Shown here piece by piece: positions 2-64,000 of a stretch of 64,000 bases of DNA (position 1 is its first letter; every line of letters starts with the position of its first letter). The translations under genes and the position numbers were made by a program. The DNA is from Comamonadaceae bacterium (GTDB lineage: Bacteria > Pseudomonadota > Gammaproteobacteria > Burkholderiales > Burkholderiaceae_C). Where the stretch lies: assembly GCA_027486755.1 (NCBI GenBank), contig JAIXOM010000063.1, positions 2,213-66,212 of the forward strand. Reading direction: 5' to 3'. The notes under the pieces are model-generated. The model saw nothing but the letters and a program-made list of their open reading frames with translations. It did no database searches and was not told the DNA's origin.

Positions 2-973
2 CGCTTTGTGGAGCAGACCGGCATTGCGTTTTACACCACGCCGCAAGGCCGCGGCGTGATTGCCGAAGACCATCCCCTGAACTTCCCGCAGGGCCGCTCG
101 ACCGCCTTCAAGGAAGCCGACTTTGTGCTGGTGGTGGGCACGCGGCTGAACTTTGTTTTCTCGCACGGCAAGCCGCCCCGGTTTTCAGCGCAGGCCCGAT
201 TTGCGCGCATAGACGTGGACCCGACCGAGGTTCAAACCTGCCAGCGCACGGATCTGCCCCTGGTGGGCGACGCCCGCGCCGTGCTCGAGCAACTGATAAC
301 CGCGGCGCAAGGCCGCGTCCATGCCAGCCTGTATGCCCCCTGGCGCGAGCAGTTGCAGGCGATCGAGCTGGCCAAAGGGCCGGCGGCCGAGGCCAAGCTG
401 GCCACCGATGCGCAGCCGATTCACCCGCTGCGCTTGTGCAAAGAGGTGCGCGACTGGATTTCACGCGATGCGATTTTGTGCGTGGACGGGCAAGAGATCC
501 TCAACTTCGCCCGCCAGACCATCCCGAGCTTTCATGCCGGCCATCGCCTGAACTCCGGCCCCTTTGGCACCATGGGTGTGGGCCTGCCCTTCGGGGTCGG
601 CGCCAAGGCGGCGCGCCCCGACAAGCAGGTGGTGGTGCTGCACGGCGACGGCTCGTTTGGCCTCAATGCGATGGAGCTTGATACGGCGGTGCGTCACCGC
701 TTGCCGCTGTTGGTGATCATCAGTCTCAACGGGGGCTGGACCGCCGACCCCGACCGCATCAAGCCCGGCCGCGACCTGGGCTACACCCGTTTCGACCTGA
801 TGGCCCAGGCCCTGGGCTGCTACGGCGAGCAGGTCGAGCGGGCCGAGGACATTGGGCCGGCACTGGCCCGCGCGGCCCGCGCGGTGGAGAATGGTCAAGT
901 GGCGGTGGTCAACGTAGTGACCGACTGGCAGGCCCGCGCCAGCACAGCAGCGTTTACCAGTTTTTCCACCTGA
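2..973 (+). CDS. Thiamine-pyrophosphate-dependent enzyme (acetolactate synthase / oxalyl-CoA decarboxylase-like), C-terminal part; 5' end lies outside the window
   Basis: The frame is open from the window edge. The product carries the TPP-binding C-terminal signature GTMGVGLPFGVGAKAA...VLHGDGSFGLN...SLNGGW. Confidence 0.8.
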   Translation, partial: RFVEQTGIAFYTTPQGRGVIAEDHPLNFPQGRSTAFKEADFVLVVGTRLNFVFSHGKPPRFSAQARFARIDVDPTEVQTCQRTDLPLVGDARAVLEQLITAAQGRVHASLYAPWREQLQAIELAKGPAAEAKLATDAQPIHPLRLCKEVRDWISRDAILCVDGQEILNFARQTIPSFHAGHRLNSGPFGTMGVGLPFGVGAKAARPDKQVVVLHGDGSFGLNAMELDTAVRHRLPLLVIISLNGGWTADPDRIKPGRDLGYTRFDLMAQALGCYGEQVERAEDIGPALARAARAVENGQVAVVNVVTDWQARASTAAFTSFST

Positions 974-8526: not shown

Positions 8527-10160
<1,634 letters not shown>

Positions 10161-10297: not shown

Positions 10298-12067
10298 TTA
10301 GAGGTCTTCGCTGCCCAGCAGCATTTCGGTGATGCCCTTGCCGGCCTGCACCATCGGGAAGACGTTTTCCGTCGGGTCGGTGCGAAAGTCCATGAACACG
10401 GTGCGGTCCTTGAGCTTGCGCGCCTCCCGCAGGGCCGGCTCCACATCTTGAGGACGCTCGATCAGCATCCCGACATGGCCGTAGGCTTCTGCGAGTTTGA
10501 CGAAATTGGGCAGGGCATCCATGTAGCTATGGCTGTAGCGGCCGGAATACTCGATCTCCTGCCACTGGCGCACCATGCCCAGGTAGCGGTTATTGAGCGA
10601 GATCACCTTGATCGGCGTGTTGTACTGCAGGCAGGTGGAGAGCTCCTGTATGCACATTTGCACCGAGCCTTCGCCCGTGACGCAGTAGACCTCGCTGTCT
10701 GGCTTGGCCAGCTTGATGCCCATGGCATAAGGAATACCCACGCCCATGGTGCCAAGGCCGCCAGAGTTGATCCAGCGGCGCGGCTGGTCAAACTTATAGA
10801 ACTGGGCAGCCCACATCTGATGCTGACCGACGTCGGAGGTCACATAGGCGTCGACATCATGGGTCATGTTCCAGAGGGTCTCGATCACCATCTGCGGCTT
10901 GATCACATCCTTGTTGCCGCGGTCGTACTTGAGGCAGTCGCGGCCGCGCCAGCCTTCGATGGTCTGCCACCACTGCTGCAGCGCCTGCGCATCGGGCTTG
11001 AGGCCAGACTCGCGGATCATGGTGAGCAGCTCAGTGAGCACGTCCTTGACGTCACCGACGATGGGCACGTCGACCTTGACGCGCTTGGAAATGCTCGAGG
11101 GATCAATGTCGATATGGATGATCTTGCGCTCGTTCTGCGCAAAATGCTTGGGATTGCCGATCACCCGGTCGTCAAAACGCGCGCCGATGGCTATCAGCAC
11201 ATCGCAGTTCTGCATCGCGTTATTGGCCTCGATGGTCCCGTGCATGCCCAGCATGCCCAAGAACTTGGGGTCGGTCGCAGGGTATGCACCCAAGCCCATC
11301 AGCGTGTTGGTGCAGGGGTAGCCCAGCATATCCACCAGCGTGCGCAGCTCTTGCGAAGCGTTGGACAAAAGCACACCGCCGCCGCTATAGATGTAAGGGC
11401 GCTTGGCCCCCATGAGCAGTTGCAAGGCCTTGCGGATCTGACCACCGTGGCCCTTGCGCACCGGGTTGTAGCTGCGCATATCGACCGTCTCGGGATATTC
11501 GTAGACACACTTCTTGAGGGAGACGTCCTTGGGAACGTCGACCACCACAGGGCCGGGCCGGCCTGAGCGGGCGATGTGGAAGGCCTTTTTCATGACCCCG
11601 GCCAGTTCGCGCACATCCTTGACCAGGAAGTTGTGCTTGACGATGGGCCGGGTGATGCCCACCGTGTCACACTCCTGAAAGGCGTCAAGGCCGATGGCAG
11701 CGGTCGGCACCTGCCCGGTGATGATCACCATGGGGATGCTGTCCATGTAAGCAGTGGCAATTCCGGTGACCGCGTTGGTCACGCCAGGGCCGGATGTCAC
11801 AAGCGCTACGCCCACCTCGCCAGTGGCGCGCGCATAGCCGTCGGCTGCATGGACCGCCGCCTGCTCGTGGCGTACCAGCACGTGCTGCATCTTGTCCTGC
11901 TTGTACAGGGCGTCATAGATGTAAAGGACGGCGCCACCGGGATAGCCCCAGATGAACTCGACCTTTTCCTCAATGAGCGAGCGCACGAGGATTTCGGCGC
12001 CCATGATTTCGGTGTCTTTGGGGGTGGCAGCAGCGGCGCTGGCCAGTTCCGCCTTGGAGATTTCCAT
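10298..12067 (-). CDS. ilvI: Acetolactate synthase large (catalytic) subunit
   Basis: All three TPP-enzyme domains are present, with the signatures GYPGGAVLYIYDAL and GGLGTMGVGIPYAMG...GEGSVQM. The product is 589 aa. Confidence 0.95.
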   Translation of the reverse strand: MEISKAELASAAAATPKDTEIMGAEILVRSLIEEKVEFIWGYPGGAVLYIYDALYKQDKMQHVLVRHEQAAVHAADGYARATGEVGVALVTSGPGVTNAVTGIATAYMDSIPMVIITGQVPTAAIGLDAFQECDTVGITRPIVKHNFLVKDVRELAGVMKKAFHIARSGRPGPVVVDVPKDVSLKKCVYEYPETVDMRSYNPVRKGHGGQIRKALQLLMGAKRPYIYSGGGVLLSNASQELRTLVDMLGYPCTNTLMGLGAYPATDPKFLGMLGMHGTIEANNAMQNCDVLIAIGARFDDRVIGNPKHFAQNERKIIHIDIDPSSISKRVKVDVPIVGDVKDVLTELLTMIRESGLKPDAQALQQWWQTIEGWRGRDCLKYDRGNKDVIKPQMVIETLWNMTHDVDAYVTSDVGQHQMWAAQFYKFDQPRRWINSGGLGTMGVGIPYAMGIKLAKPDSEVYCVTGEGSVQMCIQELSTCLQYNTPIKVISLNNRYLGMVRQWQEIEYSGRYSHSYMDALPNFVKLAEAYGHVGMLIERPQDVEPALREARKLKDRTVFMDFRTDPTENVFPMVQAGKGITEMLLGSEDL

Positions 12068-15634: not shown

Positions 15635-17717
<2,083 letters not shown>

Positions 17718-55994: not shown

Positions 55995-56039
55995 GCCTGG
56001 GATTATCCCCGAGCCGGCAACCGCGCTGCCGGGCCTGGA

Positions 56040-56498
56040 TCACTGAGGGGCGCTGGCTTGGTCCTCGCCCGGCCAATCGCGAATATAGGCCTTGAGCAGC
56101 TTGTTTTCGAAGTTCTGGCTGTCAACCACCGCCTTGGCCACATCGTAAAAGCTGATCACGCCCATCAGGGTGCGCCTGTCCATCACCGGCATATAGCGGG
56201 CGTGGCGCTCAAGCATCATGCGCCGCACCTCGTCGAGCTCGGTCTCCAGGGTGCAGGTCAGTGGGTGGTCGTCCATGGCGCTGCGCACCAGGGTGCTGCC
56301 CAGGCTGCCGCCATTTTTGACCAAGCTGAGCATGACCTCGCGAAAGGTCAGCATACCCACCAGATCGCCATGCTCCATGACGACAAGCGAGCCGATGTCT
56401 TTGTCGGCCATGATGGTGGTGGCATCGGCCAGGGGCTGGTCGGGCCGAACGGTAAACAAGGTACCGCCCTTGACTCTGAGTATGTCTGAGACCTTCAT
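56040..56498 (-). CDS. CBS-domain pair protein
   Basis: From MKVSDILRVKGG it has two CBS repeats (DIGSLVVMEHGDLVGMLTFREV and RYMPVMDRRTLMGVISFYDV). I moved the start to the internal ATG. Confidence 0.8.
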   Translation of the reverse strand: MKVSDILRVKGGTLFTVRPDQPLADATTIMADKDIGSLVVMEHGDLVGMLTFREVMLSLVKNGGSLGSTLVRSAMDDHPLTCTLETELDEVRRMMLERHARYMPVMDRRTLMGVISFYDVAKAVVDSQNFENKLLKAYIRDWPGEDQASAPQ

Positions 56499-56618
56499 GA
56501 GCGCTCCTCCTTGACTGATGCATGGCGCCGGGCAGCGAGGCCGGCAGTTCTGGCAATATAGCCCACAATCGCCCTCTTGCCAGTCACGGACTGCACAAAC
56601 GAAGGAGCTCAACATCCC

Positions 56619-57920
56619 ATGCCCGGCTACCTCGACCCTGGTTTTGACACCCTCGTACTGCATGCCGGCGCCGCCCCCGACCCGGCCACCGGCGCGCGGG
56701 CGGTGCCCATACACCTGAGCACATCCTTCGTCTTCGAGTCCAGCGAGCAGGCCGCCAGCCTGTTCAACCTGGAGCGGGCCGGCCATGTGTATTCACGCAT
56801 CAGCAACCCCACCAATGCGGTGCTGGAGCAAAGGATCTCAGCCCTGGAAGGCGGTATTGGCGCGATCGCCACCGCCAGTGGCCAGGCCGCGCTGCACCTG
56901 GCGGTAGCCACCTTGCTCGACGCCGGCTCACACATCGTCGCCTCTTCGGCCATCTATGGCGGCTCACACAATTTACTGCACTACACCCTGAGCCGCTTCG
57001 GCATAGAGACCACCTTTGTCGCGCCGGGCGACTTGGATGCCTGGCGGGCCGCCCTGCGGCCCAACACTCGCCTGCTGTTTGGCGAGACGGTGGGCAATCC
57101 GGGGTTGGACGTGCTCGACATTGCCGCTGTGGCCGAGATCGCCCACGCCGCGGGCGTGCCGCTGCTGGTCGACTCCACCCTCACCTCACCCTGGCTGCTC
57201 AAGCCTTTCGAGCATGGCGCCGACCTGATCTACCACTCGGCCACCAAATTCCTGTCGGGCCACGGCACGGTGATCGGTGGCCTGGTGGTCGATGGCGGCA
57301 GCTTTGACTGGCAGGCCAGCGGCCTGTTCCCGCAGCTCAGCCAGCCTTATGCAGGCTTTCATGACATGGTGTTCACCGAAGAGAGCACGGTGGGCGCTTT
57401 TCTGCTGCGCGCGCGGCGCGAAGGCCTGCGCGACTTCGGCGCCTGCATGAGCCCGCACACCGCCTGGCTGATCCTGCAAGGCCTGGAAACCCTGCCGCTG
57501 CGCATGGCACGCCACATGAGCAATACCGAAAAGGTGGTCGAGTTTCTCCATGCCCACCCCTTGGTCACAAGGGTGGGCCATCCCATGCTGCCCGAGCACC
57601 CCAGCCATGCGCTGGCACAGCGCCTGCTGCCACGCGGGGCCGGCTCGGTGTTCAGTTTCGACCTCAAAGGCAGCCGGGCCCAGGGCGCGGCCTTTGTCGA
57701 CGCGCTCAAGGTGTTCAGCCACCTGGCCAATGTGGGCGACTGCCGCAGCCTGGTGATCCACCCGGCCAGCACCACCCACTTTCGCATGGACGACGCGGCC
57801 CTGGCTGGGGCGGGCATTGCGCAAGGCACGATCCGCCTGTCGATCGGTCTGGAGGACCCCGCCGATTTGGTCGAAGACCTCAAACGGGCCCTGAAGGCGG
57901 CCGAGAAAGCGGGGGCCTGA
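56619..57920 (+). CDS. metY: O-acetylhomoserine aminocarboxypropyltransferase (sulfhydrylase), PLP-dependent
   Basis: The product contains GFDTLVLHAG, YSRISNPT, and SATKFLSGHG with the PLP lysine. I moved the start to MPGYLDPG. Confidence 0.9.
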   Translation: MPGYLDPGFDTLVLHAGAAPDPATGARAVPIHLSTSFVFESSEQAASLFNLERAGHVYSRISNPTNAVLEQRISALEGGIGAIATASGQAALHLAVATLLDAGSHIVASSAIYGGSHNLLHYTLSRFGIETTFVAPGDLDAWRAALRPNTRLLFGETVGNPGLDVLDIAAVAEIAHAAGVPLLVDSTLTSPWLLKPFEHGADLIYHSATKFLSGHGTVIGGLVVDGGSFDWQASGLFPQLSQPYAGFHDMVFTEESTVGAFLLRARREGLRDFGACMSPHTAWLILQGLETLPLRMARHMSNTEKVVEFLHAHPLVTRVGHPMLPEHPSHALAQRLLPRGAGSVFSFDLKGSRAQGAAFVDALKVFSHLANVGDCRSLVIHPASTTHFRMDDAALAGAGIAQGTIRLSIGLEDPADLVEDLKRALKAAEKAGA

Positions 57921-57922
57921 TC

Positions 57923-58744
57923 ATGCAATTCAATGTCGCCGGCGCCAGCATCTACGGCTACAGCGGCGGGCGCAGCTGGCAGACCGGCCAGCCCACCTCC
58001 GTCTTCATTCACGGCGTGCTCAACGACCACAGCGCCTGGATTTTGCAAAGCCGCTACCTGGCCCACCACGGCTGGAATGTGCTGGCCATCGATCTGCCCG
58101 GCCATGGGCGCAGCGCCGGCCAGCCGCCAGAGACGGTTGAGCAAGGCGCCGACTTTGTGGCCGCGCTGCTCGACGCCGCCGGCATAGCGCGCGCCGCGCT
58201 GATCGGTCACAGCTGGGGCTCGCTCATCGCCCTGGAGGCTGCCTCACGTCTGAGAGATCGCATCAGCCATGCAGCGCTGGTGGGCACCGCCTTCCCGATG
58301 CGCGTCTCAGCCGCTCTGCTGGACGCCGCGCAAAACGAGCCGCTCAAGGCGATTGCCATGATCAACCAGTTCTCGCGCAGCACCCTGGCCCCGCCGCCTT
58401 CAGCGCTAGGGCCAGGCACCTGGGTCGACGGCGCCAGCATCGCACTGAACAAACGCATCCTGGCAGGCAACCGCCAGGTCAATCTGCTGCACACCGGCTT
58501 TACAGCCTGCGACCGCTACGCGGGCGGACTCGAAGCAGTCACCAAGCTCAGCTGCCCGCTTCTGTTTGTGCTGGGCCAGGTCGACCAAATGACCCCGCCG
58601 AAAGCCGCCCAGGGCCTGATCGAGCAAGCCCGAGCGCAGGGCCAGTCGGTTCAGGTGGTGAGCGTCCCGGTGGGTCACCACGAAATGACCGAGGCGCCCG
58701 AGGGCACGCTGGCGGCACTGCGGGGGTTTCTCAACTCGACCTGA
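57923..58744 (+). CDS. Alpha/beta-fold hydrolase (intact copy)
   Basis: It has VFIHGVLNDHSAW, the nucleophile elbow GHSWGS, and a late VPVGHHEMTE His motif. It starts 2 nt after the metY stop. Its 3' two thirds form the left copy of the repeat flanking the low-GC island. Confidence 0.8.
   Translation: MQFNVAGASIYGYSGGRSWQTGQPTSVFIHGVLNDHSAWILQSRYLAHHGWNVLAIDLPGHGRSAGQPPETVEQGADFVAALLDAAGIARAALIGHSWGSLIALEAASRLRDRISHAALVGTAFPMRVSAALLDAAQNEPLKAIAMINQFSRSTLAPPPSALGPGTWVDGASIALNKRILAGNRQVNLLHTGFTACDRYAGGLEAVTKLSCPLLFVLGQVDQMTPPKAAQGLIEQARAQGQSVQVVSVPVGHHEMTEAPEGTLAALRGFLNST
58197..58744 (+). repeat. Left copy of a ~545-bp imperfect direct repeat (3' part of the hydrolase gene)
   Basis: I aligned it by hand to 62917-63461. 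There are about 50 mismatches and one 3-nt indel (about 90% identity). The central portion is nearly identical. Confidence 0.85.
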
Positions 58745-58868
58745 CGACGCCAAAGACACCCGTGAAGCGGCACACAACAGCCAGTGGGATACCGTACGAA
58801 CAATCAAAAACCAGCGGTTTTTGTCGAAGCCACTAATCTGCCCATGGGGGGGATTATCCCGCCACAGA

Positions 58869-60347
58869 TTAATATCCATGAATTTCTAATTTCCACCTAA
58901 CAAAGACGCCAACATTACCTCTCCGCATGTCTCTAACCATCAACTTCCATTCACCACTCGCACCCTCTCCAAGGTGACGAATGCTTCCAAACCTCCAGTT
59001 ACTATACCTAAACACACCGAATGCCTGATTATGAATTTCAGACAAAATGCTTTTTGTTCCGGATGGAGACACAAGCACAACCTCCAAATCACCAACTTTC
59101 GGATGCCCCGGGGCATCAAAATATATATCAACAAATTCGGTATGCATATTTTTATCGACAGTAATTGAACTAACCAACCCCGCCAAATCATTATCCGGTA
59201 TAGGCATACTAACAAGTTTTTCAACCGAAACACTTTTAGAGGAAGGCAAATTCTTCCAATTGAGCGCCAAACCAACAGCAGCGGCAGCATCGACAACTCC
59301 AAAACCATAACTGTGATTCACCCACAGTCCAGCTCCATTTTTTACCCAATCGATATTAGCCGGATCGTTTTTCTTTGCTGACATTGCTAAAATTTTTCTT
59401 ACGTCTCTCCACGATAAACTTGGATTAGCTTCGAGAATTAGAGCGACAACGCCAGTCACCATGGGGGCTGCAGCTGATGTTCCACCAAAAAGCCTGGTAT
59501 AGTTAGTATTAGAAAAATCGTTTATCTTGTCCTTGGAGTTGTATCCAAAATCTCCTGTTACATCAGTACTCACGACACCCAAGTTGTTCGACCCACCCTT
59601 AGAGGGCGCACAGATAAGTAACGTTGCCCCAGCCTCAGAATAGCCAGTCCTCATCCCAAAATGATCAACAGCACATACTGGTAATGTATATCTATTGTTC
59701 ACGAGACCACTGTAGTTGACATTATCAAAAGGCACTCCATCACCATCAATCATGGCGCCATTACCAGCGGAAAATACGTAAACTACCCCTTTCCCGGAGC
59801 GGCCTCTCGTCGTCCCCATTTCAAGGGCACCCTCTATCTCCGCTTTTAAATGGAGAGGCTCGCCCCAGCTATTAAAATCACCCCAACTATTATTTGATAC
59901 ATCAACCAAATCCAACCTTCTTATCAAGGCATCAGCTAGATTTTTTGTAGCAGGCGCCCTTAAGGCATTAAAAGAAATAATGGTGGATTTCGGCGCAACA
60001 CCCCTTCCACCCAAGCCATTACCTTCTACGGCGGCTATGATTCCAGCCACAGAGGTTCCATGATTCGCATTAGAGAAATTATATTCAATTGGCAAATAGC
60101 TAAAATTGCCGTATCCAACATTGTCACTCAAATCCTCATGCTCAATATCCACTCCGTCATCGACAATAGCGATAGTTATACCCCTACCCTTGTAAGGAAA
60201 ATCACTTGGTAGGTTTATATTCGAATGATATTCGGAACCCAGTTGCCTCAAATACCATTGCTCCTTTTCAAGAGGGTCCAATCTATAGTCATCACCACCA
60301 CCACATCCGGCAAGCAGACATACAAGCCACAAGACCCACGTTTTCAT
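58869..60347 (-). CDS. Kexin-like S8 subtilase lipoprotein with C-terminal proprotein-convertase P-domain
   Basis: It has the lipobox LLAGC. The catalytic triad contexts are IAIVDDGVD (Asp), NHGTSVAGII (His) and GGTSAAAPMVTGV (Ser). The C-terminal region of about 130 aa (GDLEVVLVSPSGTKSIL...GEWKLMVRD...WKLEIHGY) matches the P-domain pattern. Confidence 0.85.
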   Translation of the reverse strand: MKTWVLWLVCLLAGCGGGDDYRLDPLEKEQWYLRQLGSEYHSNINLPSDFPYKGRGITIAIVDDGVDIEHEDLSDNVGYGNFSYLPIEYNFSNANHGTSVAGIIAAVEGNGLGGRGVAPKSTIISFNALRAPATKNLADALIRRLDLVDVSNNSWGDFNSWGEPLHLKAEIEGALEMGTTRGRSGKGVVYVFSAGNGAMIDGDGVPFDNVNYSGLVNNRYTLPVCAVDHFGMRTGYSEAGATLLICAPSKGGSNNLGVVSTDVTGDFGYNSKDKINDFSNTNYTRLFGGTSAAAPMVTGVVALILEANPSLSWRDVRKILAMSAKKNDPANIDWVKNGAGLWVNHSYGFGVVDAAAAVGLALNWKNLPSSKSVSVEKLVSMPIPDNDLAGLVSSITVDKNMHTEFVDIYFDAPGHPKVGDLEVVLVSPSGTKSILSEIHNQAFGVFRYSNWRFGSIRHLGEGASGEWKLMVRDMRRGNVGVFVRWKLEIHGY

Positions 60348-61522
60348 TGGAGAATCTGCTTGGGCGAAATAGGAGTGAGCATAGTTGATATTCTGATATT
60401 TGAAAAATCTACATCAGACTTGAGAAGCTGAAAACCCATGAAGTCCTTTGATGTAAGGAACAGCGAGATCTGATTGGCTTTATTGGCGCCAGCAATAAGA
60501 TATGAATCCTGCAATTCACCGATTGAAAGCCAATGATATCCTTGCATTGGGATTTGAAATTTTCTCAAGACATGCGATCGATGATCAAACTCAAATGCAG
60601 TTTGCCTACACAGAATTATTAACATAGAATCATTGTGAATCACGAGCAAAGGGTTATCATCAAGATCAAAGATATTGATCCATTTTTTTGAGCCCTCATC
60701 AAAATAAAATACGGTATTTTTAGTTAAGTATTTTACGCCAGACTGAAGCAAGGAAGCCGGAGTCTCGCCATTCACCAAATAGAGACGATTAGAGAGATAA
60801 AAGCGCTGGGCGCCGAACTGATCAACATCAACCGTGTTCCTGCCTTCCGTTGTATTTTTTCTGTAATCAACAATTACTCTTCTATCGCCGTTCTCCGGAT
60901 TAAAATCCAGCGCAACTTTATCATTGGTGTACGTGATATATCGTTTATCTTGATATTCATGCGGATCCAATGTTCCTGGAATTTTTTTTACAACTTCGAA
61001 TCTTTTAACATCCAAAACAACGTCATCTATGTACGTGGACTTTTGAAGCAATGAGTCAGTATCCACAGAACCGAGCACGTGAGGCAACCCAGAACTCCTC
61101 ACTGCATCAGCACTTTTTCCTCGAATTATCTGCTCACTAACAAGATATTCATCTGCTGTATAAGGAATTATTGAATTAATCCCGTTCTTAAAATCCAGTT
61201 TTTTTTCCCCGTTTTTAAAAACAGCACGCAAGATTGTATCAATTCCAGATTTCATCCTTTCCTGTGTATATAGCAAGAAAACTCCATTGTTACAATTATA
61301 GATCGCCTGAAAAATAACATCATTTTCCGGAGAAATTGTGCGCAGAAAATATGCCATCTTGCTTTGCTCATCAATCTCCAATAACTCTGCTCGGAATGAA
61401 CTATGAATCACAGCATGTTTAGGACATGCAACATCAAATTTTATCAAGGACTGTTTCTCAGCACACCCCATCAAAAGGACTGAGCAAATCAAAATACACA
61501 ATTTATGCATATTCAAGGTCAT
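60344..61522 (-). CDS. Hypothetical lipoprotein, no recognisable domain
   Basis: It is a 392-codon ORF filling the gap between the two enzyme genes, with ATGA overlaps at both ends. It has the lipobox LLMGC and an SD-like AAGGTG 8 nt upstream of the ATG. Its composition matches the island. Confidence 0.7.
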   Translation of the reverse strand: MTLNMHKLCILICSVLLMGCAEKQSLIKFDVACPKHAVIHSSFRAELLEIDEQSKMAYFLRTISPENDVIFQAIYNCNNGVFLLYTQERMKSGIDTILRAVFKNGEKKLDFKNGINSIIPYTADEYLVSEQIIRGKSADAVRSSGLPHVLGSVDTDSLLQKSTYIDDVVLDVKRFEVVKKIPGTLDPHEYQDKRYITYTNDKVALDFNPENGDRRVIVDYRKNTTEGRNTVDVDQFGAQRFYLSNRLYLVNGETPASLLQSGVKYLTKNTVFYFDEGSKKWINIFDLDDNPLLVIHNDSMLIILCRQTAFEFDHRSHVLRKFQIPMQGYHWLSIGELQDSYLIAGANKANQISLFLTSKDFMGFQLLKSDVDFSNIRISTMLTPISPKQILQ

Positions 61523-62679
61523 AGGTTCGACACCTTGAATGTCGTCAATGCTGAACTATCGCGGAACTGACTTGGAGTAATAATTCCATACGCACCAAGA
61601 GACCGCGGGGCAATGATATTGTATCTATACGAATTGTATGCGCTCCATATTAATGAGGTGCAGTAGAACTTTGATGTATCTCTTGAGTTAGTAAAATTCC
61701 AATTATATGGCTTGCCAGTCTGTCTATCAGAATACCAAAATGCATTGGACCTAATCCAGGAATCTGGTTTACAATATGCGCCATACAAATCGTAGCAGTC
61801 GTACTCTGACCAACTCCAATTCAATCGAGGCGTCAATGCCCTAACCTCAGTGTATTTATCCATCCACCTTTGTGCATCGTTTGTCCTTGAGACTCCTACA
61901 CCTGTATTTGCATCGACTATGTTAATACCACCTTCAAATGCCCAAACAATAGCGACATGCCCGGGCACACCCGTAATCGAGCCTTCTCCATTTGTCCAAA
62001 TGACATCTCCCGGACGCCAGCCCCAGCTTGTAATGTTTTGATGACTTTTGGGCTTGGTTGTATTTCTGCTTTGATTGGTACCACGGCCTTTTCCACCACC
62101 TTTCATGGTTGGGGAATAAACAAACCATTGCTCCTTGTGCTCAGAGATTTTATATGGTAACTGGTATTCTTCCGCTAATTTTCGAATCTCTGATTCCTCT
62201 GCCAGATCCCTCTGCTTTGCTTCTTCAATAGCAATTTTGTCGTCAGCTGAGATGGTTGGCTCGCGAAAGTCTGTGCTACTTGAGACTTCCGCCTCACTAA
62301 TAATTTGATCTTTTCTACTTTGGATATCCAGTTGCACCTGCGAGAAGAATTTCGCAGCCTCCCCTGACGCTGCATATTGCAAAAACAAGGTGTGAACTTG
62401 CTCAATGTTCTCTTTAACATCTTTACCCGTTTTGAGCTGCAGCACGAAACCATTGGCCAACATTTTTAAGGCAGGCATAAAATTTGGCTTTACCTCTTCT
62501 GGCAAACCATAATCTCCAAAATAATTCTGGTAGATCCAATCTGCGTTGGTGTAATCTGCCACCGTCCCTGCCGCAATCTTGTCGGAGTACTCAACTTTCG
62601 ATGCTGTAGCACCACCGCCTCCACATGAAGAAAGCAAGAAAGTCGAGGAGATAAGAATAGTAATAGCGGAGAGATTCAT
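61519..62679 (-). CDS. Two-module lipoprotein with a C-terminal permuted papain-fold (NlpC/P60-YiiX-like) domain
   Basis: It has the lipobox LLSSC. The ATG at 62679 is preceded by AAGGA, whereas the ORF track uses the upstream TTG at 62694. The C-terminal region has GDVIWT...GHVAIVW about 100 residues before FYCTSLIWSAYN. This His-before-Cys order is characteristic of permuted NlpC/P60 enzymes. The domain call rests on motif recognition only. Confidence 0.6.
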   Translation of the reverse strand: MNLSAITILISSTFLLSSCGGGGATASKVEYSDKIAAGTVADYTNADWIYQNYFGDYGLPEEVKPNFMPALKMLANGFVLQLKTGKDVKENIEQVHTLFLQYAASGEAAKFFSQVQLDIQSRKDQIISEAEVSSSTDFREPTISADDKIAIEEAKQRDLAEESEIRKLAEEYQLPYKISEHKEQWFVYSPTMKGGGKGRGTNQSRNTTKPKSHQNITSWGWRPGDVIWTNGEGSITGVPGHVAIVWAFEGGINIVDANTGVGVSRTNDAQRWMDKYTEVRALTPRLNWSWSEYDCYDLYGAYCKPDSWIRSNAFWYSDRQTGKPYNWNFTNSRDTSKFYCTSLIWSAYNSYRYNIIAPRSLGAYGIITPSQFRDSSALTTFKVSNL

Positions 62680-62916
62680 ATTGAGTCCTTTCAAATTAAT
62701 ACAACGATATCAATCTCTCAGATGATATGCACCTGCAAAGTGCAAAGAAATGCCTCCTACATAGTTAATATTTTTAATAAGATTGGCCGTAGTGAACGCT
62801 GTTAGAGACGGATGATGCGGCATTGCCTATGGCATGGTGTTGCCCAGGGCACTACACACCTATCCCTCGGCCTAGGATTTCCAGCCGACCTGAACGGGGC
62901 CTCAGCCTTGTGACCG

Positions 62917-63461
62917 TGCTGATCGGCCACAGCTGGGGCTCGCTGATCGCGCTGGAAGCTGCCGCCCGCCTGGGGGAGCGCATCAGCCATGCAGCACTGG
63001 TGGGAACGGCTTTTCCGATGCGGGTCTCGGCCGCGCTGTTGCAGGCAGCCCTGGAGCAGCCGCTCAAGGCGATTGCCATGATCAACCAGTTCTCGCGCAG
63101 CACCTTGGCCCCGCCGCCTTCAGCACTGGGGCCAGGCACCTGGGTCGACGGCGCCAGCATCGCACTGAACAAACGCATCCAGGCCGGCAACCGCCAGGTC
63201 AATTTGCTGCACACCGGCTTTACGGCCTGCGACCGCTACGCGGGCGGACTCGAAGCAGTCACCAAGCTCAGCTGCCCGCTGCTGTTTGTGCTGGGCCAGG
63301 TCGACCAAATGACCCCACCCAAAGCAGCCCAGGGCCTGATCGAGCAGGCCCGAGCGCAAGGCCAATCAGTTCAGGTGGTAAGCGTCCCGGTGGGTCACCA
63401 TGAAATGACCGAGGCACCCGAGGGCACGCTGGCGGCGCTGCGGGGGTTTCTGTCTACCTGA
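62917..63461 (+). pseudogene. 5'-truncated second copy of the alpha/beta hydrolase gene (right copy of the direct repeat)
   Basis: It encodes LIGHSWGSLIALEAA...GFLST and aligns to residues of about 92-273 of the intact copy. It lacks the first ~90 codons. The upstream in-frame sequence in ORF 62823-63461 has no similarity to the hydrolase N-terminus. Confidence 0.8.
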
Positions 63462-63600
63462 AGGCTGCGCCACCGCCGCTCTTTGAACCGAGAACGCCGT
63501 GGTCCACCGCTCTTCGGGGAACTGTCAGTAATCGGCTTGACTTTGGCATTGACCCGGATATGCTTTCATACTGCACAGTATTACTGAAACTGGTTTGAGA

Positions 63601-63864
63601 ATGATCGTCATGACTGCAAACACGCTTCGCGCCTCTTATTCGATTTCAGCCTCAACGCTTCAACGCTTCAATGCGGTGGTTCCTGCCGGCGAGCGCAGCC
63701 GGGTGATAGAAGAGTACATGCAACAAGCCCTGGTGAACCGTGAGCAGGAGCTCGAGGCGATTGCCAGCGCATTCATGAGTGACCCAGCCAATGCGCAAGC
63801 ACTTGCAGACGAAAAGGCTTGGGATGTGACCATAGGCGATGGCCTGAGCGGCCCCAAGGTCTAA
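63601..63864 (+). CDS. Antitoxin-like small protein upstream of MazF (possible ribbon-helix-helix type)
   Basis: It is an ORF of about 85 aa ending 12 nt before the mazF-like start. Its size and position are typical of a type II antitoxin. The start is ambiguous (63595 TTG, 63601 ATG or 63610 ATG). The fold assignment is a guess. Confidence 0.55.
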   Translation: MIVMTANTLRASYSISASTLQRFNAVVPAGERSRVIEEYMQQALVNREQELEAIASAFMSDPANAQALADEKAWDVTIGDGLSGPKV

Positions 63865-63876
63865 GACCTTCACGCC

Positions 63877-64000
63877 ATGGAATTTAAGCGCGGACAAATC
63901 TACCGATTCAACTTAGAGCCTGCGCGCGGCAGTGAGCAGCAGGGGACGGCCCGCCCCTGCGTCGTCCTCTCACTGACCCCCTTCAACAGGCAATTTCGCA
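63877..64000 (+). CDS. PemK/MazF-family toxin, N-terminal part (runs off the window)
   Basis: MEFKRGQIYRFNLEPARGSEQQGTARPCVVLS matches the MazF/PemK N-terminal signature (RGxIY...L.P..GSEQ.G.RP.VVLS). Confidence 0.8.
   Translation, partial: MEFKRGQIYRFNLEPARGSEQQGTARPCVVLSLTPFNRQFR

Follow-up and report, generated by a model that had tools for sequence, protein, structure and literature searches.

A rare and evidently mobile operon of three predicted lipoproteins, including a subtilase of kexin architecture, inserted in a Comamonadaceae genome

Introduction

Two described protease systems come closest to the element reported here, an AT-rich operon of three predicted lipoproteins (genes 1 to 3, products P1 to P3) that lies towards the end of a 64-kb stretch of DNA from a Comamonadaceae bacterium (the whole stretch analysed, hereafter the window). 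Dentilisin of Treponema denticola is encoded by the prcB-prcA-prtP operon, whose three lipoprotein products form an outer-membrane complex, and PrtP-dependent cleavage of PrcA yields an acylated N-terminal part and a free C-terminal part (PMC8167434). ASP of Aeromonas sobria is a kexin-like protease deficient in a propeptide; it needs the product of the adjacent gene, ORF2, whose C-terminal tail, lodged in the active site, inhibits the protease transiently and assists its folding (PMC5638518). Relevant to the first protein of the operon are the permuted NlpC/P60 enzymes, which have a hydrophobic pocket and bind fatty acid (PMC3142127). Characterized members are phospholipases or acyltransferases, including lipid toxins of type VI secretion systems (PMC12994826), and staphylococcal LnsA, a lipoprotein N-acyltransferase, is among them (PMC13559823).

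The operon resembles each of these systems in part. As in dentilisin, three lipoproteins are encoded by one operon with an S8 subtilase last and acylated, lipidation of the cassette products being predicted. In contrast, PrtP has its own cleaved N-terminal propeptide and another C-terminal domain, whereas P3 has no propeptide and carries a P-domain, and the first protein of the cassette is itself an enzyme by its predicted permuted NlpC/P60 domain. P3 scored 67.9 bits (E 7e-19) with the NCBIfam PrtP model, against a cut-off of 300, and P2 had no NCBIfam match; the resemblance to dentilisin is organisational only. With ASP, P3 shares the S8 domain, the P-domain and the lack of a propeptide, and distant relatives of the cassette have a secreted open reading frame (ORF) of ~130 aa beside the protease gene. 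The differences are that the ASP chaperone gene is located downstream, that ASP is secreted and not lipidated, that the window has no ORF2-like gene, and that ASP prefers basic residues while P3 is without acidic S1 residues. Compared with kexin and furin, P3 retains the catalytic domain, the P-domain, the D-H-S triad and the oxyanion Asn, and differs in its missing prodomain, its replaced S1 aspartates and its predicted lipid anchor. The catalytic domain of P1 recalls the YaeF/YiiX family (MEROPS C92; relatives LRAT/PLAAT, LnsA, Tox-Act1 and TseH) in having His before Cys, a shared motif and a similar predicted fold; unlike these, P1 is a 386-aa lipoprotein with an added helical domain of ~165 aa and a Gly-rich tether, and the sequence similarity is marginal. 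Finally, the insert is flanked by repeats of the 3' end of its target gene, as are integrative elements that encode an integrase, but it has no recombinase gene.

To our knowledge, bacterial kexin-type proteases are little understood, and ASP with ORF2 is the only case in which the folding of a prodomain-less subtilase has been explained. A preliminary description of the window, made from its sequence, had named no described system of this composition; the composition is indeed unmatched, although analogues of its logic exist in dentilisin and in ASP with ORF2. Comparative analysis of genomes and protein families indicates that the cassette is a well-delimited, rare, conserved and evidently mobile operon that is phylogenetically widespread.

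Results

Conservation and distribution of the cassette

The order gene 1, gene 2, S8 gene was found in 18/18 lineages in which the gene-1 homologue is intact and sufficient sequence follows it; these lineages belong to the Beta- and Gammaproteobacteria, Geobacteraceae and Sulfurovum (four phyla-level groups). A three-gene form occurs in nine betaproteobacterial-type lineages (the window and loci L001, L003, L006, L009, L013, L016, L031 and L034). Four genes make up the cassette in nine distant lineages (Geobacteraceae L019, Sideroxydans L020, Methylococcaceae L021, the gammaproteobacterial contig L022, L040–L042, Sulfurovum L046, and L048), where an extra secreted ORF of ~130–155 aa is located between the P2 and S8 genes, immediately upstream of the protease gene. 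The three genes are thus linked and recur as one unit. This supports the functionally linked module proposed in the preliminary description, and none of the three proteins matched a well-characterized unrelated function. Between three-gene lineages P2 is the fastest-evolving product (21–56% identity, against 57–77% for P1 and 61–75% for P3), and P3 is the most conserved member; P1 identity falls to 26–40% in distant lineages.

The cassette is rare; of 185,579 species-representative genomes, 6 carry it, at 7 loci in total. In PLSDB, no plasmid matched the insert at the DNA level or P1 or P2 at the protein level, and the cassette was not found in the viral contigs of IMG/VR. Its hosts are environmental and uncultured, coming from freshwater, wastewater and sediment metagenomes and including metagenome-assembled genomes (MAGs) of Limnohabitans, Ottowia, Sideroxydans, Geobacteraceae, Methylococcaceae and Sulfurovum. 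Some contexts are plasmid-like or resemble integrative and conjugative elements (ICEs): L001 and L002 have ParA/ParB, a DNA methylase, DUF2958, a tyrosine recombinase and toxin-antitoxin pairs nearby, and L009 has RPA, KfrA, IS21 and toxin-antitoxin genes. The tyrosine recombinases near the cassette in L001 and L009 are outside the cassette itself. Other copies have housekeeping genes as neighbours, as in L020, where the cassette separates tgt from yajC, and in Sulfurovum, where metG is nearby. PemK-type pairs adjoin the cassette in L001 and L013, and the native pair of the window is likewise beside the insertion site; variable regions with many toxin-antitoxin genes may be favoured landing places for the cassette.

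The exceptions to the conserved order are decay products or rearrangements (L018, L038 and L045). P1 remnants that break off precisely at the Gly-rich linker and are followed by neither a P2 nor a P3 gene are present in L018 (10001–10573; a Limnohabitans MAG) and L038 (3375–3947). In L045 (7055–11984 of a 3.16-Mb ENA genome contig), a lone gene for a P3-family S8 lipoprotein is located between two copies of a 445-aa DDE_Tnp_1 insertion sequence (IS) transposase; this arrangement resembles a composite transposon, and a DarT/Macro toxin-antitoxin pair and integrase fragments are nearby. The operon of L009 is interrupted between the P1 and P2 genes by a 171-aa ORF (11280–11795, at the same position in L010–L012, all Ottowia-type plasmid-like contigs), whose product has an IS1595-type transposase zinc-ribbon domain.

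A literature search found no paper joining C92 with S8 or describing bacterial kexin-like lipoprotein operons of this type, and the databases searched held no informative annotation for the combination, the P2 family, the P1 N-terminal domain or the cassette. The enzyme families are known; for the gene combination, the P2 family, the N-terminal domain of P1 and the conserved cassette, no description was found.

Composition and gene layout of the insert

In sliding 400-nt windows, G+C was 0.63–0.69 through position 58799, 0.375–0.458 over 58800–62799 and again 0.65 at 62800–63199, with values of 0.59–0.67 throughout the remaining 64 kb. G+C at third codon positions (GC3) was 0.43, 0.37 and 0.38 in genes 1, 2 and 3, respectively, against 0.82 in the flanking metZ and hydrolase genes. 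Both computations deviate from the flanks, in agreement with the abrupt low-GC island described at first. The ORF coordinates likewise bear out three minus-strand genes coupled by ATGA stop/start overlaps at 61519–61522 and 60344–60347, and an AAGGA Shine-Dalgarno sequence is located 7 nt 5' of the P1 ATG. Scans of Pfam, NCBIfam, PADLOC and PHROG disclosed no integrase, transposase, regulator or secretion gene among the ORFs of 58745–62916; as had been reported for mobility, regulatory, secretion and phage genes, the island holds only the three ORFs, none of them a recombinase. An Rfam scan of 56000–64000 gave nothing credible. The remaining features are listed in Table 1.

By pattern match, each product has the lipobox noted in the preliminary description ([LVI][ASTVIM][GAS]C; LLSSC/GGGG in P1, LLMGC/AEK in P2 and LLAGC/GGGD in P3), and the lipobox Cys is kept in the checked homologues with an intact N-terminus. 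Because of these lipoboxes and of the conserved Cys pairs C33/C77 of P2, which fits an oxidising compartment, and C295/C303 of P1, all three products are predicted to be extracytoplasmic lipoproteins.

P3, a subtilase of kexin architecture

P3 matched the Pfam S8 family (PF00082, E 2.7e-40) and, over residues 415–488, the P-domain (PF01483, E 1.9e-16). Comparison with PDB profiles gave full-length matches, including the P-domain, to kexin and furin (E 1e-53 to 1e-51) and matches to the Aeromonas ASP structures 3hjr and 3wqb (E 1e-39). The triad D63, H96 and S291 and the oxyanion residue N196 are invariant in 17 family members. The family comprises ~80 clusters at >=50% identity, beyond which similarity drops to longer multi-domain subtilases, and in PADLOC-DB 2.0 P3 matched only the generic subtilase (E 1e-18) and IetS models.

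Residue 23–24 of P3, just after the lipobox residue Cys15 and a GGGDD stretch, aligns with residue 7–15 of the mature crystallised enzymes, and P3 had no match to an I9 or S8_pro-domain in Pfam. Since the alignment begins at the N-terminus of the mature enzymes, a few residues past the lipobox Cys, P3 is made without a prodomain. At the positions of the furin pocket, whose S1 residues we take to be Asp258 and Asp306, P3 has N159 for D258 and S213 for D306, together with A94 for D191 and H166 for D264; only D154 is kept (as D64). Asn and Ser occupy the two S1 positions in all 17 P3-family members examined. A specificity for paired basic residues is not expected, because the acidic pocket residues of furin are replaced, and P3 is a kexin by architecture and probably not by specificity. 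The earlier designation as a kexin-like protease therefore holds for the S8 plus P-domain architecture and fails for the prodomain and the acidic S1 residues, which are missing.

P2, a predicted Kelch-like propeller

As a single sequence, P2 had no match in Pfam, NCBIfam, PHROG or PADLOC. Its family is small, with 5 clusters among 5.8e9 proteins and, by a filter-free HMMER profile search, 18 among 1.84e9 representatives, and nowhere in that search was it found outside the cassette operon. A profile of 22 P2 sequences compared with the PDB matched the Kelch domain of KBTBD10 (E 7.1e-8), then KLHL20 and a Kelch protein (5.5e-5 to 3.2e-4), in a series that continued down to 1e-2. The AlphaFold2 (AF2) model, built from 5 sequences, is all-beta with blade-like groups of strands and a mean pLDDT of 48; its top Foldseek matches were all Kelch domains, with TM scores of only 0.3–0.44 on this poor model. 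P2 is thus predicted to be a Kelch-like beta-propeller. Whereas the preliminary description had left its fold unknown, the profile and Foldseek searches now assign one.

The last 15 residues of P2, ISTMLTPISPKQILQ, are a conserved exception to its fast divergence; this tail is Pro-rich and disordered in the model. Its motif STMxTP[ILV] occurs in 9/9 three-gene lineages, even where identity over the remainder of P2 is as low as 21–32%, and in 0/9 four-gene lineages.

The small ORF of four-gene cassettes

The small secreted ORFs of the four-gene loci share the pattern LTGxIIVxF...SLxIANxIY...VxAAYPDW, which is prodomain-like by eye; the ORF between the P2 and S8 genes of L019 does not belong to this family. 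One member weakly matched PF18492 (ORF_2_N, the external-chaperone family of Aeromonas ASP) at E 0.041 and 14.5 bits against 29.2. The small ORF had no meaningful PDB profile match, so that neither PDB profiles nor Pfam confirmed the likeness to a prodomain or chaperone. Translation of the window insert in six frames contained no small-ORF or ORF2-like sequence and no remnant of one. The three-gene form of the window has lost the small ORF, which, by analogy with ORF2, is a candidate folding partner of the protease in four-gene cassettes.

P1, a predicted permuted NlpC/P60 lipoprotein

The AF2 model of P1 (pLDDT 74, pTM 0.73) has an alpha/beta catalytic domain with a pLDDT of ~90. Its only significant structural neighbours in Foldseek were Escherichia coli YiiX (2if6; E 9.6e-5, TM 0.61 normalised by target) and the permuted NlpC/P60 enzyme of Bacillus cereus (3kw0; E 2e-3, TM 0.58). 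H241 (in GVPGH) and C340 (in FYC[ST]S), in the order His before Cys, do not vary among 23 homologues and are also retained in distant loci, and the motif GKPY(N/D)...YC(S/T)S is common to YiiX and P1, where it reads GKPYN...FYCTS. Many P1 homologues carry a precomputed PF05708 match, the L048 homologue being unmarked; in NCBIfam, P1 had only a sub-threshold match to the YiiX family, and it had no match in PADLOC or PHROG. The family comprises 29 clusters, all of ~390 aa.

These comparisons place the papain-fold hydrolase of the preliminary description in the right fold class and refine it to a circularly permuted NlpC/P60 domain (YiiX/C92-like), a lipid- or acyl-directed class. Because the characterized permuted NlpC/P60 enzymes act on fatty-acyl bonds, a lipid or lipoprotein substrate is more likely for P1 than the cell wall. 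A peptidoglycan-hydrolase toxin is disfavoured, since P1 is of the permuted YiiX type and not a canonical P60 (its NLPC_P60 match has an E value of only 0.0046, and its fold matches YiiX and BcPPNE); with this, the cell-wall toxin considered earlier became the least favoured of the options then put forward.

The N-terminal helical domain of P1 had no relative in the PDB or Pfam. It is better conserved across phyla than the catalytic domain and ends in the nearly invariant motif SP(T/A)MKGG. Beyond this motif, the tether is disordered in the model and varies in length and composition, with a (GGGTN)n expansion in L037. Assemblies often break in this linker, whose DNA appears to be unstable or repetitive. 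Four loci that matched only residues 1–192 had prompted a polymorphic-toxin architecture for P1, with a constant N-terminal domain and variable C-terminal domains; it was rejected because the contigs of L037 and L039 stop within the Gly-rich repeat, while L018 and L038 are frame-broken remnants. A dibasic, kexin-type cleavage of P1 at MKGGGKG/KGR was likewise unsupported, the S1 aspartates being replaced family-wide and the linker varying in length and composition.

The insertion event

Five metagenomic contigs of close relatives (L025–L029) contain the empty site, with aroC, CBS, metZ, hydrolase, RHH (ribbon-helix-helix) and PemK genes in which the hydrolase gene (272 aa) directly precedes the toxin-antitoxin pair. 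The window is 95.6% identical to L025 up to 58731 and 97.1% identical from 62914, with 538 nt of L025 aligning on both sides. The insertion measures 4720 bp in total, of which 58732–62913 is foreign; the limits of 58745–62916 first given for the island fit this missing DNA within a few bases. A direct repeat of ~538 bp, overlooked in the preliminary description, brackets the insert; its copies are ~90% identical and correspond to the 3' two-thirds of an alpha/beta-hydrolase gene. The cassette was acquired horizontally, as had been proposed, because relatives have the empty site (a 4720-bp gap between sides 95.6–97.1% identical in five contigs), the repeat flanks the insert, GC3 contrasts with that of the neighbouring genes, and the cassette is AT-richer than its surroundings in 14/14 other loci.

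The right repeat copy is 93–98% identical to the empty site along its whole length. Sliding identity against L025 and L028 showed the left copy to be a mosaic in which a native-like middle (95–100% identity) separates two donor-like ends, ~170 nt at the start and ~15 nt at the finish, that are only ~80% identical to the native sequence. Such a pattern suggests that the DNA integrated through homology and that gene conversion followed. A GC-rich segment that separates the operon leader from the right repeat resembles a degenerate relic of the 3' end of a metZ-like gene, for a Cys/Met enzyme dependent on pyridoxal phosphate (PLP). In this segment, 13 of 19 aa equal the C-terminus of native metZ (tblastx E 0.001 in a small database), which is weak evidence; the DNA is ~65–70% identical by eye, 71% being the mean column identity over the whole alignment. 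We infer that the incoming DNA carried a diverged metZ-hydrolase neighbourhood of a relative and probably entered by recombination through that homology. The flanking repeat derives from the 3' end of the target gene, as in integrative elements, but is far longer than usual att cores. Because it measures ~538 bp and its copies are only ~90% identical, homology-driven integration fits better than core-site recombination, and a short att core is the less likely route of entry.

The toxin-antitoxin pair to the right of the insert was considered as part of the island and ruled out, since its RHH and PemK proteins are 100% identical to the pair at the empty site of L025. The PemK protein of the window is only 25–35% identical to the PemK proteins near other cassettes (L001 and L013).

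Signs of mobility

Recombination between the repeats of the window would free a circle of 4720 bp, with a hydrolase fragment in antisense orientation between the end of the P3 gene and the leader of the P1 gene. A freshwater contig, L031 (JGI Ga0114972_10022497), has an exact terminal overlap of 123 nt that gives a circular path of 4363 bp holding only the P1, P2 and P3 genes and a 540-nt spacer, and the P2/P3 ATGA junction spans the contig ends. The 123 nt presumably equal the largest k-mer of JGI MEGAHIT assemblies. At the core of the spacer is an antisense fragment of ~300 nt, 77% identical to the 3' end of an ABC-transporter gene that in L025 is located 1.7 kb beyond the insertion site of the window. 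The topology of L031 is that predicted for the window circle, with a different captured host fragment at the same relative position. L031 may derive from the cassette in excised, circular form or from a tandem array, one circular assembly path not being proof.

In L042, direct repeats of 67 nt (9008–9073 and 16226–16290), which include the terminator hairpin of the upstream rpsA gene, bracket the four genes and a 441-aa Cys/Met-PLP (metZ/metY-like) gene. The window cassette is located one gene from metZ and carries the metZ-like relic; the metZ/metY-like gene of L042 could reflect coincidence or a recurring association. L019 has flanking repeats of 38 nt, and besides L019 and L042 the other loci are without short flanking repeats. 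Inspection of the flanks of eight loci disclosed no conserved non-coding att-like motif at the cassette ends, except in the related pair L001/L003. Taken together, these features point tentatively to movement in which captured host DNA serves for homologous (Campbell-type) recombination; an alternative is mobilisation in trans.

Table 1. Coordinates of the features described. Positions are those of the window, except for P1 domains (residues) and small ORFs (positions in the named locus).
Feature	Position	Strand	Remarks
Gene 1 (P1)	61519–62679	minus	386 aa from ATG; alternative TTG at 62694 gives 391 aa
Gene 2 (P2)	60344–61522	minus	392 aa
Gene 3 (P3)	58869–60347	minus	492 aa
P1 helical N-terminal domain	residues ~27–190		novel; ~39–171 in the AF2 model; followed by the invariant MKGGGKG motif
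P1 Gly-rich disordered tether	residues 192–210 (185–208 in the AF2 model)
P1 permuted NlpC/P60 (YiiX/C92-like) domain, predicted	residues 210–386		His241, Cys340
AT-rich leader, putative promoter region of the operon	62680–62817	minus
Spacer 3' of gene 3	58732–58868	minus	137 nt; not in empty site
Terminator-like hairpin	58823–58805	minus	CAAAAACC-GCT-GGTTTTTG, then T-rich tail; consensus match only
Host alpha/beta-hydrolase gene	57923–58744	plus	273 aa, intact; Pfam Abhydrolase_1/6; 3' part is the left repeat copy
Left repeat copy	58194–58731		mosaic; now completes the hydrolase gene
Right repeat copy	62914–63451	plus	displaced native hydrolase 3' fragment; 183-aa fragment in the NCBI record
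Degenerate metZ-like (Cys/Met PLP enzyme) 3'-end relic	62818–62913	plus	GC-rich; between leader and right repeat
RHH/MazE-like antitoxin	63610–63864	plus	native flank; listed ORF from TTG 63595
PemK/MazF toxin, start only	63877 to window end (64000)	plus	native flank
Small ORF, L020	4950–5354
Small ORF, L021	4585–5010
Small ORF, L022	12489–12956
Small ORF, L040	10712–11119
Small ORF, L041	12377–12778
Small ORF, L042	12675–13127
Small ORF, L046	8609–9001
Small ORF, L048	8613–9011

Discussion

Our preferred model, to which we give a probability of about 0.4, is that the cassette encodes an envelope-anchored lipoprotein enzyme complex, organised like dentilisin and relying on chaperoning in trans as in ASP with ORF2. 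P1, P2 and P3 would be co-translated and work as one assembly at the envelope. Subtilases without a prodomain normally require a folding partner, and P3, because it has no prodomain of its own, would depend on a partner encoded next door. P2 is proposed to scaffold P3, and its C-terminal tail may sit in the protease cleft as a temporary inhibitor or chaperone, replacing the lost small ORF. This role is assigned to P2 because the small ORF is gone, the P2 stop codon overlaps the P3 start codon, and the tail is constrained, disordered and Pro-rich. P1 would be the effector, a YiiX-type acyl-hydrolase or acyl-transferase acting on acyl linkages of phospholipids or lipoproteins and not on peptidoglycan, and it would hang from the membrane by its helical domain and the Gly-rich tether of variable length. 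P3 may cut P1 in or near this tether, so that the acyl-hydrolase domain is freed or activated while the helical domain stays anchored or bound to the complex.

Several observations weigh against this model. The match of P1 to PF05708 (C92; E 7e-6, 26.6 bits) is just under the Pfam cut-off of 27, and the Kelch assignment of P2 combines a profile match (E 7e-8) with fold matches of low TM on a poor model (pLDDT 48). The link of the small ORF to ORF2/I9-type chaperones consists of one sub-threshold match and a pattern recognised by eye, and the correlation between P2 tail and small ORF is confounded by phylogeny, the three-gene loci being one clade. P3 is without the S1 aspartates of furin, and nothing predicts cleavage at the Lys-containing MKGGGKG. 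Neither P1 nor P2 shows similarity to PrcA or PrcB. In addition, the operon leader (62680–62817) has no strong sigma-70 consensus, and no promoter was confidently identified there.

As the main alternative, the genes could form a toxin, immunity and activator module, in which P1 would be a membrane-lipid toxin, like Tox-Act1 or TseH, displayed on or released from the surface or vesicles after a P3 cut, and P2 a periplasmic immunity lipoprotein. The periplasm is indeed where permuted NlpC/P60 phospholipase toxins act, with membrane-associated immunity proteins as their partners (PMC12994826), P2 evolves fastest of the three products, and the cassette is mobile and often located beside toxin-antitoxin genes on plasmid-like contigs. 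We nevertheless consider this reading unlikely: the cassette and its surroundings contain no secretion-system, Rhs, PAAR or other trafficking domain, the catalytic domain of P1 is conserved and not polymorphic in the three-gene clade (P1 identity being 26–40% in distant lineages) with no variant C-termini found, and neither P1 nor P2 had a PADLOC or PHROG match. A propeller of ~390 aa would also be large for an immunity protein, and an order of toxin, immunity protein and protease is without known precedent. Quite unlikely, in our estimate, is independent scavenging, that is, a lipase or acyl-hydrolase and a protease co-regulated for nutrients, with P2 as a substrate-binding lipoprotein and no obligate complex. 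The environmental freshwater, wastewater and sediment hosts would suit such a function, lipoprotein anchoring holds exo-enzymes close to the cell, and dentilisin also serves nutrient acquisition (PMC8167434). The genes, however, keep a strict order, are coupled by ATGA overlaps and co-occur in 18/18 lineages of several phyla, which favours interdependence over co-regulation; among 1.84e9 representatives P2 was found only in the cassette operon, P3, having no prodomain, probably needs a dedicated partner, and a trait of general use would be expected to be far commoner than this cassette.

Very unlikely is defence or exclusion at the envelope by a mobile element, with remodelled surface lipids, lipoproteins or receptors that block phage adsorption or conjugation. 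The plasmid- or ICE-like genomic company of L001/L002 and L009 and the match of P3 to the PADLOC S8 "subtilase" model (E 1e-18) are in line with it, and permuted NlpC/P60 lipoprotein N-acyltransferases alter surface lipoprotein chemistry (PMC13559823). On the other hand, the similarity of P3 is only to generic S8 proteins, P1 and P2 had no PADLOC match, many copies are located among housekeeping genes, the IMG/VR viral contigs did not contain the cassette, and no exclusion system of such composition is known. A more far-reaching version of the envelope model joins it to the mode of movement: a circularisable cassette of three or four genes, without a recombinase, would enter and exit in Campbell fashion by way of a captured host-gene fragment and encode an envelope machine in which the P2 tail chaperones P3 in trans and P3 matures the tethered P1. 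As a whole, this combination is of low probability.

The cassette offers a natural comparison of two solutions to the folding of such a protease, the four-gene form with a small secreted protein and the three-gene form without it. Its clean empty site, long diverged repeats and circular assembly path make it a tractable case of gene-cassette movement without a dedicated recombinase. By analogy with dentilisin and ASP, it may belong to a broader class of lipoprotein-anchored subtilase assemblies with dedicated partners, and the pairing of a protease with a permuted NlpC/P60 enzyme could bring to light a new means by which mobile DNA alters the lipid or lipoprotein surface of Gram-negative bacteria.

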